The notes below the pieces were generated by a model. It saw only the letters and a list, made by a program, of their open reading frames with translations, was not told the DNA's origin and made no database searches. This document shows positions 1 through 15,939 of a DNA stretch of 15,939 nucleotides, one piece after another. The stretch's first letter is position 1. Each line of letters begins with the position of its first letter. The stretch lies in NCBI GenBank assembly GCA_037969155.1, contig JBBKWW010000039.1, positions 1 through 15,939 of the forward strand, read 5' to 3'. Made by a program: the position numbers and the translations under genes. This DNA comes from Moraxellaceae bacterium. Lineage in GTDB: Bacteria > Pseudomonadota > Gammaproteobacteria > Pseudomonadales > Moraxellaceae.

Positions 1-104
1 CTGCCAAAAGGCAACCAAACCACTGACGCAATTGTTGACAATTTCAATCTACTCGTCCGTTGCAGTTTAGTAAATCAAAATCCAGATAAAAAGAGTGTAA
101 TCCC

Positions 105-761: not shown

Positions 762-793
762 ACTCGGTATCATGCCAATGGCATTGGGGGTTG

Positions 794-821
794 TTGTCCC
801 TTTCATCTCATGTTGTATATG
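794..821 (+). promoter_or_regulatory. Putative sigma70-like promoter for the thiolase gene: TTGTCC, 16 nt spacer, TATATG with TG immediately upstream. An AAGGAA Shine-Dalgarno lies at 831-836.
   Basis: Hexamers and spacing were read directly from the sequence. No other support. Confidence 0.25.
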
Positions 822-843
822 TCATTTTTTAAGGAATTAATTC

Positions 844-2022
844 ATGACCGAATCTGTCGTTATCGTCAATGGTGCACGCACCGCAATGGGTGGTTTTCAA
901 GGCTCATTGGCCGCTGTCAGCGCACCTGAGCTGGGTGCAACTGTCATTAAAGAAGCGGTGAGCCGTGCAGGTCTTGCCCCAACTGACGTGCAAGAAGTCA
1001 TTATGGGCTGCGTCTTACCTGCTGGCCTAAAGCAAGGCCCTGCCCGTCAAGCCATGCGTCAAGCAGGTCTGCCAGACAGCACCAGCGCGGTCACTATTAA
1101 CAAGCTGTGTGGCTCTGGCATGAAGGCGGTGATGCAAGCCACCGACATGCTCAAAGCTGAAAGCGCCGATATTGTGGTGGCAGGTGGCATGGAATCGATG
1201 ACCAACGCACCGTACCTGTTACCCAAAGCCCGTGGCGGCTTCCGCATGGGTCATGGCGAAATCAAAGATCATATGTTCTTAGATGGTCTAGAAGATGCTG
1301 AGACCGGTCGTCTGATGGGCTCATTTGCACAGGACATGGCCAATACTAAGGGCTATACCCGTGAGCAAATGGATGATTTCGCGATTCGCTCACTCAAGCG
1401 GGCGCAAACTGCGATTAACAATGGTTGGTTTAAAGACGAAATTACGCCAGTGGTGGTCAAAGGTCGTGGTGGCGATGTTTCCGTCGAGGTAGACGAACAA
1501 CCAGCCAATGCCAAGCTGGACAAGATCCCTACCCTGCGTCCAGCTTTTGCCAAAGACGGTACCATTACTGCCGCCAACGCCAGCTCGATCTCAGACGGTG
1601 CTTCCGCCTTGGTCTTGATGCGCGAATCGACTGCAACAGCTAAAGGCTTAGCGCCATTGGCTCGCATCGTGGCGACTGCTAGCAATAGCCAACACCCCAG
1701 CGAGTTCACCATTGCACCTGTTGGGGCAATCCAGAAAATTTTGAATCAAACTGGCTGGACTGCTGAATCAGTCGATTTGTGGGAAATCAACGAAGCGTTT
1801 GCGATGGTAACGATGGCTGCCATCGACAAGTACAGCTTGGATGACGAAAAAGTCAACATTCATGGCGGTGCCTGTGCGCTTGGCCATCCCGTTGGTTCGA
1901 CTGGCTCGCGGATTATCTTGTCGCTGATCCACGCGCTTAAACGCACCGGTGGCAAAAAAGGCATTGCCGCGCTGTGTATCGGCGGCGGTGAAGCCACTGC
2001 GGTCGCGATTGAACTGATCTAA
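844..2022 (+). CDS. Acetyl-CoA C-acetyltransferase (thiolase II, AtoB/PhaA/YqeF-like).
   Basis: 392 aa. The N-terminal VIVNGARTAMGGFQG, the active-site region NKLCGSGMKAV (nucleophilic Cys) and the C-terminal GGACALGHPVGSTGSRI...ALCIGGGEATAVAIE (catalytic His/Cys) are hallmark thiolase motifs. ATG start with AAGGAA Shine-Dalgarno. Confidence 0.9.
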   Translation: MTESVVIVNGARTAMGGFQGSLAAVSAPELGATVIKEAVSRAGLAPTDVQEVIMGCVLPAGLKQGPARQAMRQAGLPDSTSAVTINKLCGSGMKAVMQATDMLKAESADIVVAGGMESMTNAPYLLPKARGGFRMGHGEIKDHMFLDGLEDAETGRLMGSFAQDMANTKGYTREQMDDFAIRSLKRAQTAINNGWFKDEITPVVVKGRGGDVSVEVDEQPANAKLDKIPTLRPAFAKDGTITAANASSISDGASALVLMRESTATAKGLAPLARIVATASNSQHPSEFTIAPVGAIQKILNQTGWTAESVDLWEINEAFAMVTMAAIDKYSLDDEKVNIHGGACALGHPVGSTGSRIILSLIHALKRTGGKKGIAALCIGGGEATAVAIELI

Positions 2023-2037
2023 GGTTGGTGTGCCACA

Positions 2038-2068
2038 CAAAACGGGACGTTATGTCCCGTTTTCTTTA
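2038..2068 (+). terminator. Rho-independent terminator after the thiolase gene: AAACGGGAC / GTTAT / GTCCCGTTT stem-loop followed by TTCTTT.
   Basis: A perfect 9-bp GC-containing stem, a 5-nt loop and a T-rich tail sit 16 nt after the stop codon. Confidence 0.6.
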
Positions 2069-2168
2069 GTGCTCAAGCATTGGAAAACCTTTAATCGTCT
2101 CAATGAACCCAAATCCACGCTCATCATTCCATTCCGCCAAGCGACCTTTAGTTTTGACCATCAATGAT

Positions 2169-2936
2169 CTATCCCACACTCAGCTTCTTTAATACTTCCG
2201 CCACAGCAACCAACCCCATACTCGCCGTCATCACCGTCGCCGAACCATAACCGCCACACTGCAAGCCGCCCGTCGTACAAGTCTCCGGCTGATATGGCTG
2301 CTCAATCGAATAGACACAAGTCACGCCAAATTTTTCTTTCGGTTTTTTACACATATTGTAATCCTGCCGCAGTGTGCGGCGGATTTTTGCCAGCATTGGA
2401 TCATATTCAGTCTTGGATAAATCGGCGACCCGAATACTGAGTGGATCAGTCTTGCCACCGGCACTGCCCGACACCACCAGCGGGATTTTATGCCACCGAC
2501 AATATAAAATCAGTGCAGTCTTGGCTTTGACATCATCAATACAGTCGAGAACCACATCAGGTGCTGTCGCCAACAGTTGCGCCACATTATCCACTGTCAA
2601 AAAATCATCGATGATATTCAGCTTAATGCGGGGGTTAATGCCACGAATCCGCTCGGCCATCGCTTGGGTTTTTTCCAGACCCAACGTATCGGTTAAGGCG
2701 GGCAACTGTCGATTGATATTCGAAGCCACCAAAATATCCATATCCACCAAGGTTATTTCAGCAATCGCTGTGCGTGCTAGTGCCTCCGCTGCCCAACTGC
2801 CGACCCCACCGATACCAATCACCATCACATGCGCTTGCTCAAAATCCGTTAAGCGTGCTGTACCATACACACGCTCAATCCCTGCAAAACGACGTGTATA
2901 CTCATCACTGCTTGGCGCTAGGTCAGCTGATGTCAT
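2169..2936 (-). CDS. tcdA: tRNA threonylcarbamoyladenosine (t6A) dehydratase TcdA/CsdL. ThiF/MoeB E1-like family.
   Basis: 255 aa. VMVIGIGGVGSWAAEALARTAIAEITLVDMD (Rossmann GxGxxG), NINRQLPAL, MAERIRGINP, IPLVVSGSAGGKTDP and the C-terminal GGYGSATVMTASMGLVAVAEVLKKL match my recollection of E. coli TcdA essentially block for block. Confidence 0.85.
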   Translation of the reverse strand: MTSADLAPSSDEYTRRFAGIERVYGTARLTDFEQAHVMVIGIGGVGSWAAEALARTAIAEITLVDMDILVASNINRQLPALTDTLGLEKTQAMAERIRGINPRIKLNIIDDFLTVDNVAQLLATAPDVVLDCIDDVKAKTALILYCRWHKIPLVVSGSAGGKTDPLSIRVADLSKTEYDPMLAKIRRTLRQDYNMCKKPKEKFGVTCVYSIEQPYQPETCTTGGLQCGGYGSATVMTASMGLVAVAEVLKKLSVG

Positions 2937-2955
2937 GGCGATTCCAAAGTAAAGT

Positions 2956-2970
2956 TAGCAAGGCTTGCTA
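2956..2970. promoter_or_regulatory. Perfect 15-bp palindrome TAGCAAGGCTTGCTA about 20 bp upstream of the tcdA start codon. Candidate operator.
   Basis: Self-complementary around a central G. It lies in the tcdA / yqiJ-like divergent intergenic region. Confidence 0.2.
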
Positions 2971-3246
2971 TTGTGCCAAAATAGTCGAATCCCATGCAGT
3001 CTTTCACGCAAAAGACCGCGAATAACTTGCTAAACCCAGCAAAAATACTTTATAAATTAACCGTTGCAAAAAACAGACAAAGCCAGACAAAAAGCAGCTT
3101 GACTACGCTATAGTGGTGTACAAGATTTTATTCGGCATGCCTGTATGGCTGATGCGGTATCTCGCGATACAATCCACTGATTGAACAGGATGCCTGAACA
3201 ATATCAGCCAACGCATCCATATACCGTCAAAGCTGAGGAGCATAAC

Positions 3247-3885
3247 ATGACTATTTTTCTCGCTAACATCCTCGCCTTTCCAACCATTATTTTTTCGATA
3301 TTACTCAGTGTTGCTGTGCTGTACTGGCTGATTTCGCTCACTGGTCTACTCGGATCAGATCTGGATCTGGATACCGGCGATGGTTGGTTAGATTTTGGGG
3401 GGCTGATGACCACTTTAGGACTCAAAGGCGTCCCCCTGCCGCTGCTCTTAACGCTGGTATTGCTGTGGGCTTGGCTGACCACCTATTCGGTGCAAGTGCT
3501 CTTCGCAACGTGGCTGACGGGCGTAATCGGGATTGTGGTCAGTTGTGTCTTGATTCCTGTTGCACTACTGCTCGGGCTGGTGCTGAGTGCTTTACTGGTG
3601 CGGCCATTTCACTCACTACTCGACGAATCGCAACAGCCGACCCAGACCCGCATTCTCGGCTGTGTCTGTAATGTGACTTCACCGACGGTGGATCAGCACA
3701 ATGGGCGTGCTGAAGCGCATTTAGATGGCGCACATTTGATCTTACAAATCCGCAGCAGTACACCACTGACTCGCGGTAGCCGAGCGGTCTTTATCGAATA
3801 TATTGCCGAAAAAAACCTGTATTGGGTTGTGCCTGAAGCCGAATTTCTGGCAGGATCAATCCAGAAAATCTCAATGAAAGATTAA
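3247..3885 (+). CDS. yqiJ: YqiJ/NfeD-like inner-membrane protein (DUF1449-like): N-terminal transmembrane helices plus a C-terminal OB-fold beta domain. Partner of the downstream flotillin.
   Basis: There are at least three hydrophobic helices (FLANILAFPTIIFSILLSVAVLYWLI, VPLPLLLTLVLLWAWL, IGIVVSCVLIPVALLLGLVLSALLV). These are followed by a soluble ~90-aa C-terminal domain (ILGCVCNVTSP...GAHLILQIRS...AVFIEY) of NfeD type. It sits immediately upstream of an SPFH/flotillin gene, as in E. coli yqiJK. The start was chosen at the ATG with GAGGAG 7 nt upstream; the ORF is open from the TTG at 3181. Confidence 0.55.
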   Translation: MTIFLANILAFPTIIFSILLSVAVLYWLISLTGLLGSDLDLDTGDGWLDFGGLMTTLGLKGVPLPLLLTLVLLWAWLTTYSVQVLFATWLTGVIGIVVSCVLIPVALLLGLVLSALLVRPFHSLLDESQQPTQTRILGCVCNVTSPTVDQHNGRAEAHLDGAHLILQIRSSTPLTRGSRAVFIEYIAEKNLYWVVPEAEFLAGSIQKISMKD

Positions 3886-3953
3886 TAGGGCATTGAGGAT
3901 GCTCACAACTGTGATTATTCCTCACTCATAGTACAGCTTAGGAGAGCGAACAC

Positions 3954-6119
3954 ATGACACATTGGTTCATCTTGGCGATCAGCGCAATTGCGGTGATTTT
4001 GATCGTCTTATTGGGCATGCTACTGCTGATTAAGATTTTTTATCGCAAAATTGACCAAGGCCAAGCCTTGATTAAAAATGACACGTCCAGCACCCCGAAA
4101 GTCTACTTTACTGGTGCGATGATTCTGCCCGTAATTCATCGGGCTGAGATCATGAAAATCTCAGTGATCACCCTCGAAATTAATCGAATGGGCAAAGAAG
4201 GCCTGATCTGCCGCGACAATTTACGCGCTGATATTAGCGTGGCATTTTATCTGCGGGTTAATGAAACCGCTGATGATGTGCTGCGCGTGGCCAAATCAGT
4301 TGGCGTGACGCGTGCCTCTGATCGGGATGCGGTCAGTGAGTTATTTAACTCTAAATTCAGTGAAGCCCTGAAAACGGTCGGTAAAAAACTCGAATTTATG
4401 CAGCTGTTTGAGGAGCGTCAGGCATTTCGGGATGCGATTGTCGCCACCATTGGGCAAGATCTGAATGGCTATGTGCTTGAAGATGTCGCCATCGACTACT
4501 TAGAGCAGACCCCAAAAAGCTCACTCGATCCGAATAACATCCTCGACTCTGAAGGGATTCGGCGGATTACTGAAATTACCGCCAAACACAATATCGAAAC
4601 CAACCGCTTAGAGCGTGATCAGGCACTAGAAATTCAGCGCAAAAACGTCTCTGCACGTGAAGCGGGTCTGGAGCTTGAACGCAGCCAAACCGATGCAGAA
4701 GCACGACAACGCCGCGAAATTGACACCTTAAAAGCGCGTGAAACCTCAGCCACCGAGCAAGTGCAGCAAGAAGAACGCGGCAAAATCGAAGCAGCACGCA
4801 TCAAGACGGAAGAAGACGTCGCGATTGCCGAAGAAAATAAACAACGCCAAATCGAACTGGCTGGCAAAGCCCGCGAGCGAGCGATTCAGATTGAAGACGT
4901 GCGTATCCGCCAAGCCCGCGAACTCGAAGACGTCAATCGTCAACGTGCGGTCGAAGTCGAACGCATTAACATGGAAAAAGAGCTGGAAGGTGAGCGCAAA
5001 GAAATTGCGGAAATCACCAGTCAGCGTATCGCAGTCGAACGCGGGGTCGCTGAAGAAGAAGAGAACATCAAAGATGTGCGTAACCGTTCGGATGCTGAGC
5101 GTAAAAAACTGGTTGCGATTACTGCGGCACAAGCGACGGCTGAAGAACACAAAATCAAACAAGTCAAAGCAGCTGAAGCACAGTTTGAGCAGTCAAAGTT
5201 TGAAGCGGATGAAGTGTTGGTACGTGCTCAGGCTGAATTCGATGCCGCCGAGAAAAAAGCCGCCGCTGAGAAAAAACAAGCCGAAGGCCAACAAGCGCTG
5301 GCTGCTGCAAATGGCCTAGCCGCTGCGCAAGTGCAAGAAGCCAACGCCAACGCCGAAAAAGCCGCGGGCTTGGCACAAGCCGACGTCAAGCTGGCCATGG
5401 CCAAAGCACAAGAAGAAACCGGTATGGCCGATGTGCGGGTACTCAACAATCGCCTGCAAGTCGAGGCTGACGGGCAAGAAAAACTTGGCTCTGCTAAGGC
5501 TAAAGCACGCGAAGCGATGGCCTTGGCGGATAAAGAAGCGGGGCTGGCAGAAGCACAAGTGTTGCAACAACGCCTACTCGCAGAAGCTGACGGAGAAGAA
5601 AAACTTGGCGTTGCTAAAGCTAAAGCTCGCGAAGCGATGGCGGCTGCGGATAAAGAAGCGGGACTGGCAGAAGCCTTAGTGATGGAAAAACGGCTGTTTG
5701 CTGAAGCAGATGGTGAGGAACGCTTGGGACTGGCGAAAGCCAAAACCCGCGAAGCCCTGCTAGTCGCTGATGCCAATGGCCTACTGGCCAAACTGAAAAC
5801 CTACGAAGATCTATCAGCAGATGCACGTTCGTTTGAAGAATTCCGGATGGGCTTAGAGTTGCAAGAGAAACAAATCTTGGGACAACTAGAAGCACAACAG
5901 GTGATTGCACAAGAAAATGCCAAAGTGATGGCGGCGGCATTGCAAAATGCTAAGTTTGAATTGATCGGTGGCGATGCCAGCATCTTCGAAAAATTCACTA
6001 CTGGCATGAGTTATGGCAAAGCAGTAGAAGGGGCGCTGTCTAAGTCGCCACAACTACAAGCCACTTTAGCCGCGATTGCTAGTCGGGTGGCACAGTCTTC
6101 AACCGACTCAGCAAGCTAA
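3954..6119 (+). CDS. yqiK: Flotillin-like SPFH/band-7 protein (YqiK/FloT-like) with a long Glu/Ala-rich coiled-coil C-terminal region.
   Basis: 721 aa. It has an N-terminal TM helix (WFILAISAIAVILIVLLGMLLLI). The SPFH core follows (KVYFTGAMILPVIHRAEIMKISVITLEINRMGKEGLICRDNLRADISVAFYLRV...). After that comes about 450 aa of heptad-like E/A/K/R-rich sequence. AGGAGA Shine-Dalgarno before the ATG. Confidence 0.85.
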   Translation: MTHWFILAISAIAVILIVLLGMLLLIKIFYRKIDQGQALIKNDTSSTPKVYFTGAMILPVIHRAEIMKISVITLEINRMGKEGLICRDNLRADISVAFYLRVNETADDVLRVAKSVGVTRASDRDAVSELFNSKFSEALKTVGKKLEFMQLFEERQAFRDAIVATIGQDLNGYVLEDVAIDYLEQTPKSSLDPNNILDSEGIRRITEITAKHNIETNRLERDQALEIQRKNVSAREAGLELERSQTDAEARQRREIDTLKARETSATEQVQQEERGKIEAARIKTEEDVAIAEENKQRQIELAGKARERAIQIEDVRIRQARELEDVNRQRAVEVERINMEKELEGERKEIAEITSQRIAVERGVAEEEENIKDVRNRSDAERKKLVAITAAQATAEEHKIKQVKAAEAQFEQSKFEADEVLVRAQAEFDAAEKKAAAEKKQAEGQQALAAANGLAAAQVQEANANAEKAAGLAQADVKLAMAKAQEETGMADVRVLNNRLQVEADGQEKLGSAKAKAREAMALADKEAGLAEAQVLQQRLLAEADGEEKLGVAKAKAREAMAAADKEAGLAEALVMEKRLFAEADGEERLGLAKAKTREALLVADANGLLAKLKTYEDLSADARSFEEFRMGLELQEKQILGQLEAQQVIAQENAKVMAAALQNAKFELIGGDASIFEKFTTGMSYGKAVEGALSKSPQLQATLAAIASRVAQSSTDSAS
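5439..5798 (+). repeat. Three in-frame tandem copies of a 120-nt (40-aa) unit inside the flotillin coiled-coil. A degenerate fourth copy lies upstream.
   Basis: The three units align residue for residue: VLNNRLQVEADGQEKLGSAKAKAREAMALADKEAGLAEAQ, VLQQRLLAEADGEEKLGVAKAKAREAMAAADKEAGLAEAL and VMEKRLFAEADGEERLGLAKAKTREALLVADANGLLAKL. The underlying DNA units are at 5439-5558, 5559-5678 and 5679-5798. The repeat also generates spurious ORFs in other frames (4738..5319, 5431..5679, 5228..5791 minus). Confidence 0.8.
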
Positions 6120-6151
6120 TCTGGCCTCGTGTAGCATGCTGAATCAGCACA

Positions 6152-6179
6152 CATCAAGGGCAGATTTCTGCCCTTGATG
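6152..6179 (+). terminator. Strong hairpin (12-bp perfect stem CATCAAGGGCAG / loop ATTT / CTGCCCTTGATG) between the flotillin gene and the giant ORF, with no U-tract. Attenuator, processing site or weak terminator.
   Basis: Inverted repeat seen directly. It is followed by CCGATTGCAGC, which is not T-rich. Confidence 0.4.
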
Positions 6180-6231
6180 CCGATTGCAGCACAAAACGCC
6201 AGAGACACCGCCACACTGATGGAACGCTCAT

Positions 6232-9200
6232 ATGTCAACAGATCATAACCAACTTGAACAGATCGTCCGTGAAGGCTCTGCCTTTGACACCATTCAACGC
6301 CGTTTGCAGACACAAGGCGAGCAATTACGCCACTCGATTAACGACCTAAACACCGAACGCACCGAGACTTTTGGCAGTGCCAACATGGCGATTTTGGGTC
6401 GCTCACGGGTGCGCACCGAACAAAATGGCGTCGCACGTGACGTGGTGCAGCTGGGCACACACCTGTTATTTGGCTTTAATCTCCAGCTGGGGCTGCGTAA
6501 AAATCTCAATGCCGATGATATTTTTGTGTTGTATCAACTCGACGACGCCAACGGTGAGTTTGAACTGACCGCACACAGCAATGCAGGCACGTTTTTGCAT
6601 GACCCAGTATTTTTGCGCGATTTTAATGAACTCCAACAATATTATAGCAATGCATTCTTAAGCCAACTGGTCTGCATGAGTGGCATGCTGCTTGCCGTAT
6701 TTCAGATCGGCGAAAAAGTCACGGATGTGCGGGTGTTTCGCTGGGAACTGTATCCGAATGGCAGCGTCAATCGCTATATCGATAATCGTGGCGAACGCGA
6801 GCTAAAATTTCCAGATCGGTTTGGCTTTAAATGGATCACGGCCACCCGCGAAATGCAGGTACAAGGCCGTCAGCCACACTTGAACATTTTAGATACGATT
6901 TTTGTCGATAATTTGCGCGGTGATATCACGTTTAAAATCGAAAACAACACGGCAACGGGTCAAGGTATTTTTGCTGATCCAGTCGATATCGACTCGCAGT
7001 CACTCGATGATGGCAGCTTTGAATATGCGGATTTGGGCGCATTAATTTTAGTGCGTATTTTACCCTTTACCGAAAAAACATGGCGTTACTACATTTTTAA
7101 CCGTGATTTACAAACTGTACGGCGAGTCGATGAGCTGGCCGGTTCAGTGGTTGCGCTACCCGAAAATCATGGGGTGATTTTTCCAGCAGGCTTTTATCTC
7201 AATAGCGGTGAGCTAAAGACATATGAGATTGCTGCCGAGGATTTTCGGTTTTTACGCAGCATTCGCGCACCGAATGGCGAAGATGTGCTGTTTATCTTTT
7301 TTGCACAAAAAACAGGGCATGTTCTGCTCTATCGTTATAATTTAATTAATAAAAGCACTGACACTCCACTGATCGGACATGGCTATGCGCTGCACAGCAG
7401 TGGCCGACTGGTGATCTTTCATGCCGAAGGTGAGCCGACGTTGGTGCATCCGCTACAACTGTGGCAAACGCCATTTATGACGGATACGGTACATGCTGAA
7501 CAGCAACAATCCAATGACAGCGTACTGGGCAAAATCGGCAATCCTGAACTGGTTCGCGGTATTGCAGAGCTGAACAGCATCACCAAACTGATTGAACAGC
7601 CGACTGCTTCTGAGCGGCATTTCAATAGTTTGATTCGACAAATTGACCGCACATTGGATCAGTATTTTTGGCTGAGCGAAGTGCATTTTGAAGCATTTAA
7701 TCAACAGCTGGTGGCCGCGCGTGGCACAGCGGAACTGATGATTGATGAGTACGAAAAGGTGCAAGCGATTCGGCAACAGTCCAATCAGGCGATTGAGCAA
7801 ACCGCACAACAACAAGCACAACTGCTGCGCGACCTAAAGCCCAAACAATGGAACGCGCCAGATCAGTTTGTGGGTTACCTGAAAAAACTACGCGATCATC
7901 ACGGCCAACTGATGAGCCTAAAGGATCGGCGTTATATTGATACGACTCGCCTTGAGCAACTGCAACAGGCGCTCAAAACCGCGCAAGATCAGCTGACCGT
8001 GCAGACGTTTGATTTTTTGGCATCTGAAGCGGCACTCCAAGGCTATCGCAATACGCTATCCGAACTGGCCAGCCAAGTCACTACCGCGCAAACCCGTGAT
8101 GCACTGAGCACACTGGTGGCGCAATATCGTGAACTGACGCTTGGGCTCGATATGATCCAAAGCATGTTGGCCTCGATGAGTGGCGATAACACCACACAAC
8201 AGACTCAGATCGCCGAAAACATCTCCAGTATCTATGCCACGATCAATCAGCAACGCGCCGAAGCCGAAATCCGGCTGCGCGAACAAGGCAGTGCCGAGGC
8301 ACGGGCGCAGTTTACCGCAAGGATTCGACTGTATGAACAAAGCCTTGCCAATGGCATCGGCACGCTCAGCGCCCCCGATGATTGCGATGGCTTACTGGCT
8401 CGTATGCTGGATCAACTGCAAGAACTCGAAAGCCAATTTAGCGAGTTTGATGATTTTTTACTGTTGATCTTAGAGCAACGCGACAGCACGCAAGACAGTA
8501 TCGAAGCACGACGCTTACAGCTACAAGAACAACGACAACGCCGTATCAACACCTTAAGCGACGCGAATAGCCGCATTCTGATCAATATCAAACAACGCAG
8601 CGAACGCTTTGCCGAACTGGCCGAATTGCATGCGTTTTTTGCCGGTGATGCGATGGTGGCCAAAGTGCGCCAAATGGCACAGCAACTGCGCGACATCGGC
8701 GCAAGTCTGGAGGCCGATACCGCCGAAGGCCAATTGCGTGCTGCGCAAGATGCGGCGATGCGCAGCGTGCGTGATCGTGCCGATATTTTTGAGGATGGCG
8801 GCAATCTGATTCGGCTAGGTCGGCATCGCTTTAGTGTCAATCAGCAACAACTGGATCTGACCTTAATTCCGCGCGATGGCAAGCTGATGCTGCACCTGAC
8901 GGGCACGCAGTTTTATGAACCGCTGGAGGATCCACGACTCGCCGTATTGCAGCAGTATTGGAACATTCAAACACCATCTGAATCCGAACAGGTCTATCGT
9001 GCCGAGTATTTGGCCTATCTGATCCTGCAACAACTGAGTAGTCGCCCACAATTGCCGTTTAATCTGGCGGATCAAGCCGCGCTGACCGACTATATTCGGC
9101 AGTTTGCCTCACCACGCTATCGAGAAGGCTACGAAAAAGGCATTCATGATGTCGATGCTGCCAAAATCGTCAGTGCGCTGTGGACCGCACAACAACAGGC

Positions 9201-11670
9201 AGGGCTGCTCCGTTTCTCGCCGACCGCACGCGCGATGGCAATGCTGTTTTGGCAAGCACTGACCCAACAACCGAACTGCCAAACTGCCCGTAGCTTACAG
9301 GCGCGTGCCCAGTCGGCGGGTAGCTTGCAGCGGATTCTCGGCAGTGAGCAACTGTTACAGCGCTTGACCGAAGAAATTCAGCCTGCCCTATCCAGCTTTA
9401 TCGATGCCCAGCAACTGCGTGCCAATACCGCCCAAACCCAACAAGCCGCAGCGTACTTGATTCGACAACTCGCCGACCCAGTGGCCAGCCAAGATGTCCG
9501 CTTCGTCAGCACGCAATATGCGCAACAACAACGACAAGCCTTCCAACAGGCTGCACAGCAACAGGGCTATCAGGCCGAGCTACAACAGGCCATTCAGCAA
9601 GCCGGTCAAAATTATGGCAAAGCATGGGCAGTGGCTGACACATGGCTGACGGCGTTTTTGCAAAAACATGAAAGTAACAATCCGGCGCAACAGCAGCACT
9701 ATCTGCCCGAAACTATTGCACTGCTGCTCACCCCCGAACTGCCGCATCAGGCACAGTCAGTCGAACTGTCGTTTGTGATTGAAGGTTTAATCGGTCAGCA
9801 TCCGCGTTTAAATGGCCAACAACTGTCGATTCAATTGGATGATTTTTTTGAGCGTTTACAACAGCATGAACAGGTGGTGATCACGGGTTGGCAGCAACTG
9901 CAACAGCTGCGACACGAGATTTTGCAGCAGCAACGCGAGCGGCTGCGCTTGAGTGAATACACCGCCAAACCGCTATCATCATTTGTGCGCAATAAGCTAA
10001 TTAGCGAAAGTTATTTGCCATTGATCGGTGACAATCTGGCCAAACAAATGGGCACTGTCGGCGAAAATCGACGCACCGATCAGACGGGCCTACTGATGAT
10101 GATCTCGCCGCCTGGTTATGGTAAAACCACCCTGATGGAGTATGTTGCTGATCGTTTAGGCTTGATTTTTATGAAAATCAACTGCCCCAGCCTTGGCCAT
10201 GATGTGACCTCACTCGATCCTGAGCAAGCCCACCATTCCACCGCAAAATCCGAACTGACCAAACTGAATCTGGCCTTAGAAATGGGCAACAACGTGATGC
10301 TGTATCTGGATGACATTCAGCATACGCATCCTGAGTTTTTACAAAAATTCATCTCCTTATGTGATGGTACACGGCGGATTGAAGGGGTTTGGCGTGGCAA
10401 AAGCAAAACCTACGACATGCGCGGCAAGCGCTTTTGTATTGCGATGGCAGGTAATCCGTACACCGAAAGCGGTGAAGTGTTTAAGATTCCTGACATGCTC
10501 GCCAACCGCGCCGATATTTATAACTTAGGCGATGTACTCAGCGGCATGGAACAGGTGTTTGCACTGTCGTATATCGAAAACGCGATCAGTTCGAATGCCA
10601 TGATTGCACCGATAGCGACCCGTGGCATGGATGATTTTTATCGTTTTGTTGATCTCGCCAATGGCCGCGACGTGCCGAGTACCGAGTTTGATTACGACTA
10701 TAGCGCAGCGGAACGGCAAGACATCACCAAGGTCATGCAAAACCTGTTTAAAGTACGCCAGACTGTGCTTCGGGTGAATCAAGAATACATCGCATCGAGT
10801 GCGCAAGCCGATCAGTATCGCACTGAGCCGAGTTTTCGCTTGCAAGGCAGCTATCGCAACATGAACCGCTTGGCCGAAAAAATCTCACCGATCATGACCG
10901 ACGCTGAAATCGAACGGCTACTCGACGATCACTATGTGGGTGAAGCACAATTGCTGACGCAAGGTGCAGAAGAAAACCTGCTCAAGCTTAAATCCATGCG
11001 CGGCACCTTGAACGCCGAGGAGCAAACCCGCTGGACACAGATCACCAGCGAGTTTCAACGCCGCCAGCAGATGGGCGGCGACCAAGACACCGGCGAAAAA
11101 GTGGTACGCCAGTTGGTATTTATCAGCGAGGGCTTACAACAACTGCACAGCATCAGCAATCAGCACAGCGAACGACAACTGACTCAGCAAGATGCGCAGT
11201 TTGGTCGCATCGCTGACGGTCTATCTGGCTTGCAAAACAGCCAGCGCGAACTGACCGAACAACGCCACAATCAACAGCGCGACTTGGCCAGCCAACAGCT
11301 ACGCTTAGAACAGACACGCCAACAACAACAGAACGATACGCTGAGTGGCTTGGCGGCGCAATTGATCCAGCAACTGCAACAGCTTGATCTAAAACCGCAA
11401 GTGCATATACAGATTGAAGAACCACGCAGTGTCAGTGAGCTGCTGAAACAAATGTCGAGCCTACTCGCGCAAGTGCTAGGTAGTTTAAATCCAAAGGATG
11501 ATCAGGCGGCACAGACCAAGGCCATCAGCGATGCCCTGCAAACGGGTCAAAGCCAGACCGTGCAACTGCTCCGCCAGCTGCGCATGCTGATGGTGCGCCT
11601 AGAAGGACAAGTCCGCCAAAGCAACCTGCAACAGGCGCAATTACAGCCGCCGTCTGACTCGCAAACTTAA
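6232..11670 (+). CDS. Giant multidomain protein (1812 aa). It has an N-terminal globular domain (about 1-480) and a long Gln/Leu-rich predicted coiled-coil region (about 480-1250). A MoxR/dynein-related (AAA_5-like) AAA+ ATPase core sits at about aa 1280-1480. The C-terminal tail is Gln-rich. Function unknown.
   Basis: It is a single 5.4-kb ORF with no competing long ORFs on either strand. Walker A is ISPPGYGKTTL (nt 10108-10140). Walker B is VMLYLDDIQH (nt about 10294-10323). The following RRIEG...GKRFCIAMAGNPYTESGEVFKIPDMLANRADIY segment matches the MoxR/AAA_5 pattern (DEInR...ATQNP.E..G.Y.LPEA.LDRF). The central and C-terminal regions have extended Q-rich heptad-like sequence (QQQRQAFQQAAQQQGYQAELQQAIQQ, LRLEQTRQQQQN). 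Confidence 0.8.
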   Translation: MSTDHNQLEQIVREGSAFDTIQRRLQTQGEQLRHSINDLNTERTETFGSANMAILGRSRVRTEQNGVARDVVQLGTHLLFGFNLQLGLRKNLNADDIFVLYQLDDANGEFELTAHSNAGTFLHDPVFLRDFNELQQYYSNAFLSQLVCMSGMLLAVFQIGEKVTDVRVFRWELYPNGSVNRYIDNRGERELKFPDRFGFKWITATREMQVQGRQPHLNILDTIFVDNLRGDITFKIENNTATGQGIFADPVDIDSQSLDDGSFEYADLGALILVRILPFTEKTWRYYIFNRDLQTVRRVDELAGSVVALPENHGVIFPAGFYLNSGELKTYEIAAEDFRFLRSIRAPNGEDVLFIFFAQKTGHVLLYRYNLINKSTDTPLIGHGYALHSSGRLVIFHAEGEPTLVHPLQLWQTPFMTDTVHAEQQQSNDSVLGKIGNPELVRGIAELNSITKLIEQPTASERHFNSLIRQIDRTLDQYFWLSEVHFEAFNQQLVAARGTAELMIDEYEKVQAIRQQSNQAIEQTAQQQAQLLRDLKPKQWNAPDQFVGYLKKLRDHHGQLMSLKDRRYIDTTRLEQLQQALKTAQDQLTVQTFDFLASEAALQGYRNTLSELASQVTTAQTRDALSTLVAQYRELTLGLDMIQSMLASMSGDNTTQQTQIAENISSIYATINQQRAEAEIRLREQGSAEARAQFTARIRLYEQSLANGIGTLSAPDDCDGLLARMLDQLQELESQFSEFDDFLLLILEQRDSTQDSIEARRLQLQEQRQRRINTLSDANSRILINIKQRSERFAELAELHAFFAGDAMVAKVRQMAQQLRDIGASLEADTAEGQLRAAQDAAMRSVRDRADIFEDGGNLIRLGRHRFSVNQQQLDLTLIPRDGKLMLHLTGTQFYEPLEDPRLAVLQQYWNIQTPSESEQVYRAEYLAYLILQQLSSRPQLPFNLADQAALTDYIRQFASPRYREGYEKGIHDVDAAKIVSALWTAQQQAGLLRFSPTARAMAMLFWQALTQQPNCQTARSLQARAQSAGSLQRILGSEQLLQRLTEEIQPALSSFIDAQQLRANTAQTQQAAAYLIRQLADPVASQDVRFVSTQYAQQQRQAFQQAAQQQGYQAELQQAIQQAGQNYGKAWAVADTWLTAFLQKHESNNPAQQQHYLPETIALLLTPELPHQAQSVELSFVIEGLIGQHPRLNGQQLSIQLDDFFERLQQHEQVVITGWQQLQQLRHEILQQQRERLRLSEYTAKPLSSFVRNKLISESYLPLIGDNLAKQMGTVGENRRTDQTGLLMMISPPGYGKTTLMEYVADRLGLIFMKINCPSLGHDVTSLDPEQAHHSTAKSELTKLNLALEMGNNVMLYLDDIQHTHPEFLQKFISLCDGTRRIEGVWRGKSKTYDMRGKRFCIAMAGNPYTESGEVFKIPDMLANRADIYNLGDVLSGMEQVFALSYIENAISSNAMIAPIATRGMDDFYRFVDLANGRDVPSTEFDYDYSAAERQDITKVMQNLFKVRQTVLRVNQEYIASSAQADQYRTEPSFRLQGSYRNMNRLAEKISPIMTDAEIERLLDDHYVGEAQLLTQGAEENLLKLKSMRGTLNAEEQTRWTQITSEFQRRQQMGGDQDTGEKVVRQLVFISEGLQQLHSISNQHSERQLTQQDAQFGRIADGLSGLQNSQRELTEQRHNQQRDLASQQLRLEQTRQQQQNDTLSGLAAQLIQQLQQLDLKPQVHIQIEEPRSVSELLKQMSSLLAQVLGSLNPKDDQAAQTKAISDALQTGQSQTVQLLRQLRMLMVRLEGQVRQSNLQQAQLQPPSDSQT

Positions 11671-11683
11671 ACTGGATATCGGC

Positions 11684-12406
11684 ATGAGCGCAGCAAAACA
11701 GATTTTATGGGTGGAGGATGACCCCGCGATTGCTGAACCGATGTGCTATGCCTTGCAACGCGAAGGCTGGCAGGTGCACTGGCAAACCACCGCACAAGGT
11801 GCATTAGAGCTGCTCAGTACACAGGTCTTTGACTGTCTGATTTTGGACGTCGGTTTGCCCGATATGGATGGTTTTGATCTGTGTCGGCGGATTCGCCAAA
11901 CCTGCCAAACGCCGCTGCTGTTTTTAACCGCACGCAATGACGAAATCGAACGCATCATCGGCCTCGAAATCGGCGCGGATGATTACTGCGCCAAGCCGTT
12001 TAGCCCGCGTGAAATCATCTCGCGGATTAAGGCGATTTGGCGACGGATGCAGCCCAGCAGCAGCGAGCCAATCCATAGCACGCCGCCTACAATACCAGCA
12101 GCCACTGACCTGCACACATGGGGCGCGTGGCGTTATCAGCCGCACAGTTATCAGTTGTTTTATCACCAGCAACTACTGAATTTAACCCGCTATGAACTGG
12201 GCTTAATCTTGCTGTTCCTACAACAGCCTGAGCGGGTGTTTAGCCGTGAACAACTGATGCAACAGGTCTGGCAACATCCCGACCACAGCCTTGAGCGCAC
12301 CGTCGATAGCCACATCAAAACCCTGCGCCAAAAACTACACGCCATCCATCCAAGCGATCCGATTGTGACCCATCGTGGTTTGGGCTATAGCTTACTGCGC
12401 GACTAA
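11684..12406 (+). CDS. creB: OmpR/PhoB-family response regulator, CreB-like.
   Basis: The receiver domain has VEDD, the phospho-acceptor region LILDVGLPDMDGFDLCR and LFLTARNDEIERIIGLEIGADDYCAKPFSPREI. The C-terminal winged helix has LTRYE...VFSREQLMQQVW...RTVDSHIKTLRQKLHAIHP...THRGLGYSL. These blocks closely parallel E. coli CreB as I recall it. The start is 13 nt after the giant ORF's stop. Confidence 0.65.
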   Translation: MSAAKQILWVEDDPAIAEPMCYALQREGWQVHWQTTAQGALELLSTQVFDCLILDVGLPDMDGFDLCRRIRQTCQTPLLFLTARNDEIERIIGLEIGADDYCAKPFSPREIISRIKAIWRRMQPSSSEPIHSTPPTIPAATDLHTWGAWRYQPHSYQLFYHQQLLNLTRYELGLILLFLQQPERVFSREQLMQQVWQHPDHSLERTVDSHIKTLRQKLHAIHPSDPIVTHRGLGYSLLRD

Positions 12407-12459
12407 GACCCAATCAGTGCGATACTGGTGATCCATAGCGGCGGGTAGATTAGGCAAGC

Positions 12460-13926
12460 ATGTCAATTTTTGTGCGAATTTGGGCAGCGTTTACGCTGGT
12501 CTTGCTGATCGGTAGTCTCCTGACCACGCATGCGCTACAACAACAAATCAAACCCAACATGCGCCAAGTGGTCGAGGATACGTTAGCGGACAATGCCAAT
12601 CTAATCGCTGGATTGGTTGCCGATGATCTACGCGATGGGCGTTTGCAAAACGTGGCGTTTGACCAAAAAATCCAAGCTGCACTCAGCCGTGATCTGAATG
12701 CCAAAATCCGCAGCATGTCAAAAACAAATGTCCAGCAAACCCTATATATCACTGATGCACAAGGCAGGGTGCGCTACGACTCGAGTGGCCACGCAACTGG
12801 CCAAGACTACTCACGCTGGAATGACGTGTATCTAACCCTACGCGGCCAATACGGCGCACGCTCAACGCGCAGCGATCCAAATGACGAGAACAGCTCGGTG
12901 ATGTATATTGCTGCACCGATCATTGATCAGGGTCAAATCATCGGCGTGGTCAGTGTCGGCAAAGCAGGGCGCACCGTACAGCCGTATATCGAAAATGCCC
13001 AGCGCGAGATGCTGCAACAAGCTGCGCTGATGGTATTAATTTCACTGTTGCTGTGTGGCGTAGTCGCATGGTGGCTACGCCGCAGTATCAACACTGTACG
13101 CCGCTACGCGCTGTCACTGCCTGCGCATGAATTGCCCGCACCGCATTTTTATTCGGCCAGTGAACTGAATGACCTGACCCGTGCCCTGACCCAAATGCGC
13201 AGCCAACTCGAAGACCGCGCCTACATCGAACAAGTGGTACACCATCTGACCCACGAACTCAAAAGCCCACTGACCGCGATCAGTGCCAGTGCTGAATTGC
13301 TACAAGACCCGCTGCCCTTGGTGGATCAGCAGCACTTCGCCGCCAATATCCAACAGCAAACCGAACATCTGCAACAACTGGTTGAGCGGCTACTGATACT
13401 GGTACGCCTAGAGCAACAAGCTGATCAATTCGTATTACAGCCCCACAATTTAAGCCAGCTTGTTGCAAGCTGTATCCAAGCGCGGCAGAGTGTTTTGCGC
13501 AGTCGGCAAGTTCAAATCATCAATACACTGCCCGATCCACTCTGGGTACTGGCTGAGCCATTTTGGTTGGGACAAGCGATTGGTAATCTGCTCGATAACG
13601 CCATCGACTTTACTGCGGCACAAGGCATGATTCGGCTCACTAGTCACCGCACGGGTTTACAACAACAACTGAGTATTGAAAACAACGGTGAACCGATTCC
13701 TGACTATGCGTTGTCACAAGTATTTGATCGGTATTTCTCTTTGCCCAGACCCATGACAGGCCGCAAAAGCAGCGGTATCGGCTTGACTTTAGTCAAAGAA
13801 ATCATGCTACGTCATCAAGGTGCAGTGACGCTGGACAACACACCGAATGGCGTCTGTGCCAGTCTGTGGTTGGCACAAGCAGACCCAAACACCGACCGTC
13901 AAACAACCACTGCGAAATCGTCATAA
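12460..13926 (+). CDS. creC: Sensor histidine kinase with two TM helices flanking a periplasmic domain of about 170 aa. CreC-like.
   Basis: H-box HHLTHELKSPLTAISASAELL, N-box LLDNAIDFT and G-box GIGLTLVKEIM. TM1 is IWAAFTLVLLIGSLLTT and TM2 is AALMVLISLLLCGVVAWWL. It is the partner of the CreB-like regulator, and a creD-like gene lies downstream. Confidence 0.6.
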   Translation: MSIFVRIWAAFTLVLLIGSLLTTHALQQQIKPNMRQVVEDTLADNANLIAGLVADDLRDGRLQNVAFDQKIQAALSRDLNAKIRSMSKTNVQQTLYITDAQGRVRYDSSGHATGQDYSRWNDVYLTLRGQYGARSTRSDPNDENSSVMYIAAPIIDQGQIIGVVSVGKAGRTVQPYIENAQREMLQQAALMVLISLLLCGVVAWWLRRSINTVRRYALSLPAHELPAPHFYSASELNDLTRALTQMRSQLEDRAYIEQVVHHLTHELKSPLTAISASAELLQDPLPLVDQQHFAANIQQQTEHLQQLVERLLILVRLEQQADQFVLQPHNLSQLVASCIQARQSVLRSRQVQIINTLPDPLWVLAEPFWLGQAIGNLLDNAIDFTAAQGMIRLTSHRTGLQQQLSIENNGEPIPDYALSQVFDRYFSLPRPMTGRKSSGIGLTLVKEIMLRHQGAVTLDNTPNGVCASLWLAQADPNTDRQTTTAKSS

Positions 13927-14028
13927 ATCTGTCATGATTTGAGGATAGTGTGATCATATGAACAATAAAAAAAGCAGCGACAATCCAACAATAATTCATC
14001 TCATCATCAGTCAGGAGAACTGTAAATT

Positions 14029-14793
14029 ATGAATATGACTCGTTATCTCAATCATTTTAAAAAACCCATGCTGCCGTCTATTTTTATCGGCATATGGCCA
14101 CTATTCGGACTGTATCTCTGGCTACAAATGGAGAGTCTATTTGCCCTGATCATCGGCAGCTTTTTTGCTGTACTGCACTATCGCAAATGGCGGCGTTACC
14201 AACGTGCGCAATATATTGAACAGTACGCCATGCCGTTGTATCTCTTGCATGATCTGCGCCGAGAGTATCAGCTTGACTCGGTACAACTGCCCATCATCGA
14301 GCGCGGCTTTAAAGACTTTTGCTTAATTCATCTGGAGAAACCCAACCAACTGCACAACATGCCGTCTAAAGCAGTCGATGCACTGTGGCACGCTTTTATC
14401 CTCGACACACGCAGCTATGCGGAGTTTTGTCAGCGTGCCTTTGGCCACATGCTGCATCATCGCCCGTCACTCGACATGCAAGCGTTGTCCAATACCACAC
14501 AGCAAAAATCCTTAAAGGCCACATGGCTTGGCGCGTGCCAACTGGAAAATTTCACCCACACACACGCCGCTCAGTTGCCGTTACAGTTACCCTTGTTATT
14601 TGCCATTGACCAGTACTTGGCGTGGCCGCAAGGCTTGCACTATCAGCTAGATCAACTGCAACACTTACTCAGAGTTCGTGATGCGAGTTCGAGTTGTGGT
14701 GGTGGAAGCTGTGGTGGGACATCCGTTGATATCAGTGATAACAGCAGTTCAGGTGGTGATTCGGGCTGTGGCGGTGGTTGTGGTGGGGATTAA
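14029..14793 (+). CDS. N-terminally membrane-anchored protein. Its conserved-looking core carries a WHxFxLDTxxY motif and several His residues, possibly related to DUF1399 (glycine-rich domain-containing protein-like). It ends in a Cys/Gly-rich C-terminal tail.
   Basis: 254 aa. TM segment: IFIGIWPLFGLYLWLQMESLFALIIGSFFAVL. Core: VDALWHAFILDTRSYAEFCQRAFGHMLHHRP. Tail: SSSCGGGSCGGTSVDISDNSSSGGDSGCGGGCGGD. AGGAGA Shine-Dalgarno 10 nt upstream. Confidence 0.55.
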   Translation: MNMTRYLNHFKKPMLPSIFIGIWPLFGLYLWLQMESLFALIIGSFFAVLHYRKWRRYQRAQYIEQYAMPLYLLHDLRREYQLDSVQLPIIERGFKDFCLIHLEKPNQLHNMPSKAVDALWHAFILDTRSYAEFCQRAFGHMLHHRPSLDMQALSNTTQQKSLKATWLGACQLENFTHTHAAQLPLQLPLLFAIDQYLAWPQGLHYQLDQLQHLLRVRDASSSCGGGSCGGTSVDISDNSSSGGDSGCGGGCGGD

Positions 14794-14886
14794 AAAAGTA
14801 TTTACGTTTTTAGATCTGCGATGACACAACCTGTCCAACTCACTCGGCATACTCAAATCTCTAAACCATCCAGCTAGGAAATCAAC

Positions 14887-15198
14887 ATGTTCACATTTAG
14901 CCACCGACTCAGCGTTTTGTTTGCACTCACTAGCATCATGTTCAGCAGCACCAGCCACGCCGCAGTTACCGAGACCTTTAAACTCACAGCCCCCGTCGAG
15001 TTTTCGGAAGAAGGCACTTATCTGACCACCAATAAGGGCGACTTTGTACTGCAAACCCTCATCATCAATCCACGTGTATTTAACACGATTAAAACCCTAA
15101 AACGTGGCAACTGCTTTAGCGCCACCTCCCCGCAAGGGCTCAGCAGCGCCGAAGGCAGTGACATCAGTAAAGTCAGTAAAATTGCCTGTAAGCGCTAA
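14887..15198 (+). CDS. Small secreted protein of unknown function (103 aa precursor, Sec signal peptide, two Cys).
   Basis: Signal peptide MFTFSHRLSVLFALTSIMFSSTSHA with the predicted cleavage after SHA and AV following. AGGAAA Shine-Dalgarno 7 nt upstream. The mature protein is about 80 aa with Cys near the C-terminus. Confidence 0.5.
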   Translation: MFTFSHRLSVLFALTSIMFSSTSHAAVTETFKLTAPVEFSEEGTYLTTNKGDFVLQTLIINPRVFNTIKTLKRGNCFSATSPQGLSSAEGSDISKVSKIACKR

Positions 15199-15228
15199 GC
15201 CACTTCACACATTTATCGGAGCCTGCAC

Positions 15229-15687
15229 ATGTCAAAATTTATTTTTTCACTGACTGCCGTCACAGCACTTAGCCTGAGCGTCAATGCACAGGCGGCTTGT
15301 CCCAGCGCAGCCAAAACGGTATTTAGCTGTAGCACCACCAATGGCAAAGTGGTCGAAATCTGTGACCTCGGCCAGCATCTCATGTATTCATTTGGCAAAC
15401 CCCGCGCCAAGCCCGAACTCCAGTTTAATCTGGCCAAAACCCGTGCCTATATGTACTTATGGGATGGCAATACTAGCTCTGAATACAATGAGTTGTATTT
15501 ACCGCGTGGCAACACCATCTATCAAGCCTACCACGCCAATCACCGCAATCATGGCGGCACTGAACATGGGATCAAAGTTTTTATCAATCAAAAACAAGTG
15601 GCTGATGTACGCTGCCGTGCGGCCAGTGTGATCGAAAACTTTCAACAGCTTGAGCTACCGCAGATCAGTGGTGACGAACGACTTTAA
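15229..15687 (+). CDS. Secreted protein of unknown function (152 aa precursor, Sec signal peptide, five Cys in the mature part).
   Basis: Signal peptide MSKFIFSLTAVTALSLSVNAQA with cleavage after AQA and A following. GGAG 8 nt upstream. The mature part, ACPSAAKTVFSCSTTNGKVVEICDLG..., suggests disulfide bonding. Confidence 0.55.
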   Translation: MSKFIFSLTAVTALSLSVNAQAACPSAAKTVFSCSTTNGKVVEICDLGQHLMYSFGKPRAKPELQFNLAKTRAYMYLWDGNTSSEYNELYLPRGNTIYQAYHANHRNHGGTEHGIKVFINQKQVADVRCRAASVIENFQQLELPQISGDERL

Positions 15688-15703
15688 TCCATACAAACTT
15701 TAA

Positions 15704-15719
15704 TTCACACAGACTTCAC
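15704..15719 (+). promoter_or_regulatory. Cre-tag direct repeat TTCACacagacTTCAC, the consensus CreB-binding motif, 72 nt upstream of the creD-like start.
   Basis: An exact TTCAC-N6-TTCAC was seen in the sequence. In E. coli, CreBC-regulated promoters including creD carry this tag. Confidence 0.5.
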
Positions 15720-15755
15720 ATACGCCACAAGCGAACCCCATCCAAGCCTCGCACA

Positions 15756-15784
15756 CTCTCCCCATCGACTAGATTTGGGGAGAG
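15756..15784 (+). promoter_or_regulatory. Hairpin CTCTCCCCA / 11-nt loop / TGGGGAGAG whose 3' arm contains the creD Shine-Dalgarno (GGAGAG, 7-8 nt before the ATG). Possible translational control element.
   Basis: A perfect 9-bp inverted repeat was seen directly. The right arm overlaps the ribosome-binding site of the ORF starting at 15791. Confidence 0.3.
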
Positions 15785-15790
15785 ATTGAG

Positions 15791-15939
15791 ATGCAGCGTT
15801 TTCTAAGCTTTAAATTTTTGATCATGGCTGGATTGATTTTTGGCTTTTTAGTGTGTTTTATGTTTATGCGCGGCATCGTGTATGAACGACAGCAATACAG
15901 CCAAAACGTGATTGCCGAAATTGGCCGTGACAGCGTGCG
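15791..15939 (+). CDS. creD: N-terminal fragment of a CreD-like inner membrane protein. It continues beyond the window.
   Basis: Open frame MQRFLSFKFLIMAGLIFGFLVCFMFMRGIVYERQQYSQNVIAEIGRDSV. The TM helix followed by an ...ERxxYxxxV... segment resembles the start of CreD. It sits downstream of creBC and a cre-tag. Confidence 0.45.
   Translation, partial: MQRFLSFKFLIMAGLIFGFLVCFMFMRGIVYERQQYSQNVIAEIGRDSV

Follow-up and report, generated by a model that had tools for sequence, protein, structure and literature searches.

The CreBC-CreD system is a conserved envelope and beta-lactam-response system in which CreD lacks an assigned biochemical role. In Escherichia coli, creD directly follows creC, as a preliminary description of the locus studied here had noted (the gap is 57 nt in MG1655), and in S. 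maltophilia the two genes are 81 nt apart, whereas in an uncultured Moraxellaceae bacterium about 1.86 kb and four open reading frames (ORFs) separate them. What are these ORFs, and which regulators would control them? We addressed this question in a stretch of 15,939 nucleotides (assembly GCA_037969155.1, contig JBBKWW010000039.1, positions 1 to 15,939 of the forward strand), referred to below as the window.

The interval was found to contain four conserved ORFs arranged as two modules: a short leader ORF followed by ORF A (module 1), and ORFs B and C (module 2). Gene content, conservation, presence or absence in relatives, and the sequence and geometry of two regulatory sites were established directly. 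Taken together, they tip the balance towards a reading in which two accessory modules were added to the spacer independently and creD retained a CreB-dependent promoter, module 1 being a PhoB-type unit. The preliminary description had placed the four ORFs at coordinates that all hold, and had proposed that they form an accessory cassette. The accessory character stands, as the gene order varies among relatives and the genes carry no housekeeping annotation, but the single cassette gives way to two separable modules. With all four conserved in relatives, none of the ORFs is, by this measure, a chance ORF. The features on which the argument rests are the following:

11684-12406, plus strand: creB, response regulator (NCBIfam CreB equivalog NF008296, 288.3 bits against a cut-off of 273)
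12460-13926, plus strand: creC, sensor histidine kinase (NCBIfam CreC equivalog NF008312, 594.7 bits against a cut-off of 356; Pfam HisKA and HATPase_c)
13918-14793, plus strand: module 1 (Pho-box-like repeat, TAnnnT hexamer, leader ORF and ORF A)
13918-13935, plus strand: Pho-box-like direct repeat TCGTCAT-AAAT-CTGTCAT, overlapping the creC stop codon
13924-13926, plus strand: creC stop codon TAA, read in the window
13946-13951, plus strand: -10-like hexamer TAGTGT (TAnnnT), 10 nt after the box, a predicted promoter element
13958-14032, plus strand: leader ORF, 24 aa, whose TGA overlaps the ATG of ORF A (ATGA)
14008-14022, plus strand: conserved 15-mer CAGTCAGGAG(G/A)ACTG, invariant or nearly so in six loci, containing the Shine-Dalgarno sequence of ORF A
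14029-14793, plus strand: ORF A, 254 aa, predicted membrane protein of family PF27765 (UCP032817-like)
14794-15687, plus strand: module 2 (ORF B and ORF C)
14811-14886, plus strand: putative leader/promoter region of module 2, conserved over about 70 nt, with the core GACACAACCTGTCCAAC at 14823-14839
14887-15198, plus strand: ORF B, 103 aa, small putatively exported protein with two invariant Cys
15229-15687, plus strand: ORF C, 152 aa, putatively exported all-beta protein with four Cys conserved in close relatives
15704-15719, plus strand: cre tag TTCACACAGACTTCAC, fitting TTCACn6TTCAC exactly, at -87 to -72 relative to the creD ATG
15791-15939, plus strand: 5' end of creD, with its ATG at 15791, running off the window

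The Pho-box-like site, the cre tag and the leader ORF

When the creC-ORF A junctions of the relatives were aligned, a direct repeat, GTCATn6GTCAT, proved invariant. In the window, the 18-bp element that contains it differs at two positions from the Pho box consensus CTGTCAT-A(AT)A(TA)-CTGT(CA)A(CT) (PMC3465305), thus agreeing at 16 of 18, and it shares the same number of positions, 16 of 18, with the box in the promoter of E. coli phoB (PphoB). A search allowing up to three mismatches returned this single match in the whole window (0.04 expected), and in 109 kb of clade loci Pho-box matches occurred solely at the creC-ORF A junction, in 6/6 loci with ORF A and with 2-3 mismatches. In the relatives, the box and the creC stop are 0-14 nt apart, and the hexamer that follows the box keeps its two leading bases, T and A, and its last T in the six loci. 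All six have one and the same spacing: box (18 bp), 10 nt, TAnnnT, 6 nt, ATG (GTG in locus L090). The box-to-hexamer distance equals that of PphoB, where 10 nt separate the box from CATAAT.

All six loci have a Pho box in place of the -35 element, with a -10 hexamer about 10 bp farther on, and neither a -35/-10 consensus pair nor a sigma-70 consensus promoter was found in 13700-15939. PhoB-dependent promoters such as PphoB and PpstS of E. coli share this layout, with two 7-bp CTGTCAT-type repeats around a 4-bp A/T spacer (PMC3465305), a -10 hexamer 10 bp downstream and no -35 element. The window differs from them in that its putative site is located within a cre locus, where it runs over a stop codon, and in that the predicted transcription start is the AUG of the leader ORF. 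From sequence and spacing, the site upstream of ORF A looks PhoB-type rather than CreB-type, and the hexamer probably acts as a promoter.

Upstream of creD, the cre tag, TTCACnnnnnnTTCAC, is matched exactly at 15704-15719. The same 16-mer TTCACACAGACTTCAC, spacer included, stands at -87/-86 from the creD ATG in L084, L090, L091, L095 and L096; L003 carries a variant tag with one half-site changed. As in E. coli and S. maltophilia, the tag is located some 70-90 nt upstream of creD: that of E. coli, TTCACcgtcacTTCAC, spans -77 to -62 and falls within the creC 3' end, and that of S. maltophilia spans -80 to -65 (PMC4689548). It is thus probable, judging by the tag, that creD retains its own CreB-dependent promoter. 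Because CreBC regulates creD negatively in S. maltophilia (PMC4689548), the sign of the effect of phosphorylated CreB (CreB~P) on creD is not to be presumed. Co-regulation with Cre, which the preliminary description had raised for the whole group, is plausible and finds partial support: creD has this canonical, invariant tag, but the conserved site that precedes the leader ORF and ORF A belongs to the Pho-box type of repeat and is not a cre tag.

The two sites are nevertheless alike enough for a rival explanation, namely that the entire creC-creD interval belongs to the Cre regulon. GTCATn6GTCAT would then be a lineage-specific, lower-affinity cre-tag variant bound by CreB~P, and A, B, C and creD would be co-induced by CreC signalling. 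The half-sites of the repeat (GTCAT/GTCAT, not TTCAC) share with the cre tag a TCA core and the 5-6-5 layout with its 11-bp period, and the repeat sits at the creC 3' end, where it replaces the tag found there in E. coli. Moreover, CreB is a paralogue of PhoB and has a similar winged-helix domain, and the link between ORF A and creBC holds even in L085, which has no creD. Against this stands the perfect, invariant TTCAC tag that creD retains at the same locus. The recognition helix of the window CreB (RTVDSHIKTLR) is almost that of E. coli CreB (RTVDTHIKTLR) and is unlike that of PhoB (RTVDVHIRRLR), so that a different CreB half-site is not expected; by the same token, CreB would read the TTCAC tag and PhoB the ORF A box. 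The match also extends beyond the 5-mer core to the full 18-bp Pho box, A/T spacer and flanking CT included, and the distance to the hexamer is that of PphoB. We consider the Cre-regulon explanation rather improbable, and retain the PhoB-type assignment for module 1.

Between this site and ORF A, the leader ORF is open in 6/6 loci, over 23-40 codons, with the other two reading frames containing 0-5 stops over the leader, about two on average (five loci counted). Its start codon occupies a fixed position, the seventh nucleotide after the -10-like hexamer, and is ATG in all loci but L090. In five loci its stop overlaps the ORF A start as ATGA, the junction noted for the 24-aa upstream ORF in the preliminary description; in L096 the frame ends 3 nt short of the ATG. 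The peptide sequence is unconserved, except that it begins Lys/Asn-rich and that the invariant CAGTCAGGAGGACTG Shine-Dalgarno block fixes the codons it spans. No Shine-Dalgarno sequence precedes the leader ORF start in the window sequence. The 15-mer at 14008-14022 could form a hairpin of 4-5 bp with the Shine-Dalgarno sequence in its loop. The leader as a whole has no stable structure, folding worse than shuffled sequence (z = +1.44), and has no Rfam match; on both counts a structured RNA or riboswitch was rejected.

The simplest reading of these observations is that the leader ORF is translated, possibly from a leaderless mRNA, and coupled to ORF A. In common with coupled leader peptides and leaderless mRNAs, the short ORF fills the 5' leader, its stop overlaps the next start and its AUG falls at the predicted +1; unlike coupled leader peptides, it shows neither an attenuator or terminator structure nor conserved regulatory codons. 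One could instead suppose that the leader ORF is untranslated, the ATG and the open frame being by-products of an A-rich 5' untranslated region and of promoter and initiation constraints, with ORF A translated from its own Shine-Dalgarno sequence only. The lack of peptide conservation outside the Shine-Dalgarno block, the missing Shine-Dalgarno sequence before the leader ORF, the GTG start in L090, the absence of ATGA in L096 and the strong, invariant Shine-Dalgarno sequence of ORF A would all fit. What this leaves out is that the frame is open in every locus when the other frames are interrupted, that the start codon keeps a fixed distance from box and hexamer, and that in 6/6 loci the stop overlaps the ORF A start or lies beside it, despite the variation in length. 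An untranslated leader is a possibility to which we give appreciable weight, though we lean against it in favour of translation. Small upstream ORFs are not a trait of family PF27765 as a whole, to which ORF A belongs: none was found beyond the cre-linked clade, matches in GC-rich genomes being noise.

Gene arrangements in the window and its relatives

The flanking genes are those named in the preliminary description. CreB and CreC exceed the NCBIfam equivalog cut-offs and contain the expected Pfam domains. The in-window fragment of creD alone gives weak CreD matches in Pfam and NCBIfam, under the cut-offs, and its 49 residues reproduce without a change the N-terminus of the 483-aa CreD (PF06123) in L001, a longer contig of the same organism that is 99-100% identical to the window. 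By these matches, creB, creC and creD are authentic. In having CreB and CreC equivalogs and CreD, the window resembles the creABCD and creBCD-hp136 loci of E. coli, P. aeruginosa, Aeromonas and S. maltophilia; it differs from them, besides the long spacer, in lacking a creA gene and in that creB follows, after 13 nt, a gene encoding a 1812-aa DUF3686/AAA protein.

Relatives were recovered by exact or near-exact look-ups and by one metagenome scan with CreD. The clusters (at least 90% identity) to which the neighbouring proteins belong bear the labels of Moraxellaceae or Pseudomonadota metagenome-assembled genomes. The gene orders were as follows:

creB-creC-A-B-C-creD: window, L001 and L002
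creB-creC-A-C-creD: L090
creB-creC-A-creD: L003, L084 and L096
B-C-creD without creBC or A: L091, L092 and L095
creB-creC-A, then unrelated genes: L085 and L086

The leader ORF and ORF A are thus fixed beside creC in all creBC-linked relatives examined (L003, L084, L085, L090 and L096; ORF A at 53-86% identity). B and C are facultative and, wherever recovered, lie directly upstream of creD and its cre tag. Judging from these arrangements, the spacer is made of two separable modules with different histories, and module 2 appears to have been gained or lost repeatedly beside creD. Two further observations concern module 2 in particular loci. In L091, a frameshifted remnant of an IS110-family transposase (6946-7563; joined fragments match PF02371 with 32 bits) abuts the B-C module immediately before the ORF B leader, and a detachment of B-C from creBC-A by rearrangement is consistent with this remnant at the module edge. 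In L095 (2-397), ORF B occurs in tandem, a partial copy and then a full copy upstream of C and creD, the contig beginning inside the first copy.

Such mobility could also mean that A, B and C are mere passengers at a permissive insertion site, unrelated to Cre, with the upstream motifs serving as their own promoters. PF27765 genes do occur elsewhere without cre neighbours or conserved partners: in 80 genomes with distant ORF A homologues (30-41% identity) and in L087 (39%), no cre genes were found within 7 kb and no neighbour was conserved. Remote ORF C relatives (L093 and L099) lie away from creD, B and C are freely gained and lost, and the IS110 remnant stands at the edge of their module. 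However, ORF A stays at creC, with the box 0-14 nt from the stop, despite its divergence to 53% identity; B-C were recovered in every locus only directly upstream of the creD cre tag; and A, B, C and creD lie on one strand with short gaps and no terminator. These constraints make a passenger origin quite unlikely, and we keep to two accessory modules tied to the cre genes.

Nor did composition set the ORFs apart. A check for skew in GC content and codon usage against the flanks, suggested in the preliminary description, returned none: A, B and C have a GC content of 0.48-0.49 and agree with the flanking genes in GC, GC3 and codon usage, and a foreign origin was rejected on this basis. No intrinsic terminator was found in 13700-15939 (2.2 expected in shuffles). 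With no terminator, compositional anomaly or Rfam element, and with an unstructured leader, the suggestion that the interval insulates creD from creBC read-through found no support. A defence-system role for A, B, C or the giant ATPase genes upstream was likewise discarded, as PADLOC gave no matches.

The wider neighbourhood of the cre genes was also surveyed. Upstream of creB, the region 3181-11683 contains two ORFs without a family match (234 and 721 aa) and then the 1812-aa DUF3686/DUF7902/AAA gene (6232-11670). The giant ATPase gene adjoins creB also in L003 and L090, and in view of this recurrence creBC may be co-transcribed with the genes of the ATPase region. On the 3' side, creD overlaps an ORF of 136-140 aa without a Pfam match (L001 11607-15179, L003 10365-14426, L090 and L091), followed by a convergent mcrBC restriction pair. 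In L001 this ORF has 136 aa and resembles hp136 of the S. maltophilia creBCD-hp136 locus by size and position alone, directly after creD (PMC4689548). Farther away, and unrelated to the cre genes, an ORF with a type IV pilin-like N-terminal methylation motif (PF07963) occupies 105-761 of the window, beside thiolase and ThiF-family genes.

The proteins of the two modules

Homology searches for each protein, another check that the preliminary description had called for, returned 528 homologues of ORF A, seven other clusters for ORF B and 432 relatives of ORF C. ORF A and all 120 of its listed homologues carry a precomputed match to PF27765, and some homologues are named "glycine-rich domain-containing protein" by NCBI. 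In the alignment, ORF A displays the family core, an invariant MPSxxVDxxWH...Y...C...HHxP...W...C...D, and the CGGGCGGD C-terminus, with Asp, His and Cys as invariant residues of its helical domain. Unlike the rest of PF27765, the cre-linked clade has an additional N-terminal transmembrane helix, a fixed position after creC, a Pho box and a leader ORF. ORF A is predicted to form a membrane hairpin, N-in/C-in, that tethers a cytoplasmic, His/Cys-rich, all-helical domain, and its role is most likely that of a membrane-tethered metal- or thiol-dependent factor. Residues 220-254 (14685-14793) form a Gly/Ser/Asp-rich linker to CGGGCGG(G)D that is kept across Alpha-, Beta- and Gammaproteobacteria; this linker attracts spurious weak matches (YxzE-like; JGI label 'YgcG').

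No fold or sequence match to ORF A was found in the PDB, and the family itself has neither a solved structure nor conserved neighbours. Two routes to a function were abandoned. A possible resemblance to plant GRDP/DUF1399 proteins (PF07173) gave no match at E <= 1 for 22 family members, and inspection of 81 loci revealed no common neighbour beyond local synteny. Our literature search found no paper on PF27765 or on this gene arrangement.

Pho control was also considered as a trait of the PF27765 family as a whole and rejected, the 81 distant loci showing merely a weak enrichment. Individual Pho-box-like repeats stand upstream of distant PF27765 genes of Lysobacteraceae, Acidovorax and Caldimonas (L009 4386-4415, L052 6837-6866, L043 6919 and L029 6785), two of them consisting of three tandem half-sites. 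PhoB control may, on the sequence of these sites, have arisen more than once in the family. A further site, in L087/L088 (6943-6958, minus strand), is an exact, inverted TTCACn6TTCAC that precedes, by 43 nt, a distantly related ORF A gene (39% identity) without cre neighbours; it is possibly due to chance, about two exact matches being expected over all fetched loci, but only about 0.03 within 200 nt upstream of a homologue.

Module 2 encodes two small proteins that matched no Pfam or NCBIfam family in library searches of the window proteins. The seven other ORF B clusters, at 60-77% identity, are all 103 aa long and keep both Cys. Close relatives of ORF C form 18 clusters (74-99% identity) and conserve four Cys, of which C34 and C129 are invariant across the whole family. 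The 432 ORF C relatives came from a profile search of 1.8 billion representatives, 151 of them reaching E <= 1e-10. The majority are free-standing secreted proteins of about 145 aa, and some form the C-terminal domain of a larger protein. The preliminary description had called B and C two small Sec-secreted Cys-containing proteins. The Cys are borne out by the homologues, and secretion is suggested by putative signal peptides recognised by inspection (...SSTSHA|A in B, ...VNAQA|A in C), with a charged n-region and a hydrophobic core. These features are kept in homologues while the h-region varies, and the N-terminus has low confidence in the AlphaFold2 (AF2) models. B and C are therefore best described as probable Sec-exported disulfide proteins.

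From its model, ORF C would be a small lipocalin-like barrel of an unannotated family. Its likeness to calycin/lipocalin-like barrels (the ToxS and VtrC periplasmic domains, FABP-like binders, the lysozyme inhibitors PliC/MliC and the type VI secretion system immunity protein BtaiB) lies in general architecture alone, with low structural scores and 3-14% sequence identity, and it matches no sequence family. Neither protein could be taken for the missing CreA (PF05981), for which hhalign gave a probability of 7.9% for the C family and 0.2% for B, the alignments covering signal-peptide regions only. A hint that B and C act together comes from P0167 (L099 1490-2710), a 406-aa lipoprotein in which a weakly B-like segment (hhalign probability 34%; HMMER 16.9 bits, E = 8.7e-5 among 315 sequences) directly precedes a clear C-like domain. 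The P0167 gene adjoins a DUF805 membrane protein gene beside an integrase-bearing element, away from creD.

On direct reading, each of the three ORFs has a Shine-Dalgarno sequence: AGGAG before A, AGGA before B and GGAG before C, the last two as the preliminary description had it. The conserved region at 14811-14886 aligns with the sequence upstream of ORF B in L091 and with that upstream of ORF C in L090, which has no B, and it corresponds to neither of the two regulatory motifs, cre tag or Pho box. For module 2, a scan of 13700-15939 and inspection of the sequence gave no convincing sigma-70 or sigma-E promoter.

Proposed model and its meaning

The regulator at each site, the transcription start, leader translation, read-through, protein topology and all biochemical functions belong to the predicted part of our model. 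Module 1 (13918-14793) would be a self-contained transcription unit, in which the 18-bp Pho-box-type repeat at the creC stop replaces a -35 element and, with the TAnnnT hexamer 10 bp downstream, forms a PhoB-type promoter for the leader ORF and ORF A. Since the predicted start coincides with the AUG of the 24-codon leader ORF, the mRNA would be leaderless or nearly so, and through the ATGA overlap ribosomes ending the leader ORF would be delivered to ORF A, which could additionally be served by its own strong Shine-Dalgarno sequence. ORF A would place its hairpin in the membrane and its helical domain in the cytoplasm, with the flexible linker leading to CGGGCGGD. Module 2 would supply two Sec-exported disulfide proteins under its own conserved 70-nt upstream region. 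Finally, a CreB-type promoter at the cre tag, with CreB~P as input, would drive creD directly. As no terminator separates the units, transcripts begun at the module 1 promoter could conceivably continue over B, C and creD and would then give creD a second input, presumably phosphorylated PhoB (PhoB~P) arising from phosphate limitation or from CreC-to-PhoB cross-talk; CreC (formerly PhoM) phosphorylates PhoB when PhoR is absent (PMC3129296).

Several points weigh against this reading. The core of the ORF A box has the 5-6-5 layout of a cre tag and sits at the creC 3' end like the E. coli tag, so that CreB could bind it. In the wider PF27765 family, upstream Pho-box-like sites are rare (2/81 loci with up to four mismatches, 6/81 with a looser core), and the GTG that begins the leader ORF of L090 is poor for leaderless initiation. 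The PF27765 assignment was taken from the precomputed matches of the sequence collection, the model being absent from the Pfam copy searched, and the conserved core was checked in the alignment. The topology of ORF A and the signal peptides of B and C were judged by inspection, and A, B and C gave no fold or family match that yields a biochemical function.

Each element taken singly, cre system, cre tag or Pho box, is already known. What is new is their combination, with a clade-specific PF27765 unit of rigid promoter-leader architecture and a facultative periplasmic pair beside creD. To our knowledge, a link between Pho and Cre has until now been known only as kinase cross-talk, CreC being PhoM. 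The presence of a Pho box close to consensus on the creC stop codon suggests that phosphate signalling and Cre are connected directly at the genomic level. The conserved geometry of promoter, leader and ORF is precise enough for direct testing. The locus also flags two sizeable uncharacterised families: PF27765, with no structural match in the PDB, and the secreted barrels of about 145 aa, with no match in the Pfam and NCBIfam copies searched.

The genes wedged between creC and creD, encoding a membrane-tethered Cys/His protein and two periplasmic proteins, are candidate functional partners of CreD. At its most far-reaching, and we regard this as a long shot, the Pho box at the creC stop would be the hard-wired output of the old PhoM (CreC)-to-PhoB cross-talk, with Cre and Pho converging on one leaderless-mRNA unit that begins with the leader peptide, encodes in ORF A a member of a widespread and structurally novel family, and reads through into the periplasmic barrel proteins and creD. 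If true, this convergence would tie phosphate status to the maintenance of the cell envelope, and would give functional work on PF27765, the ORF C family and CreD itself a first point of entry.

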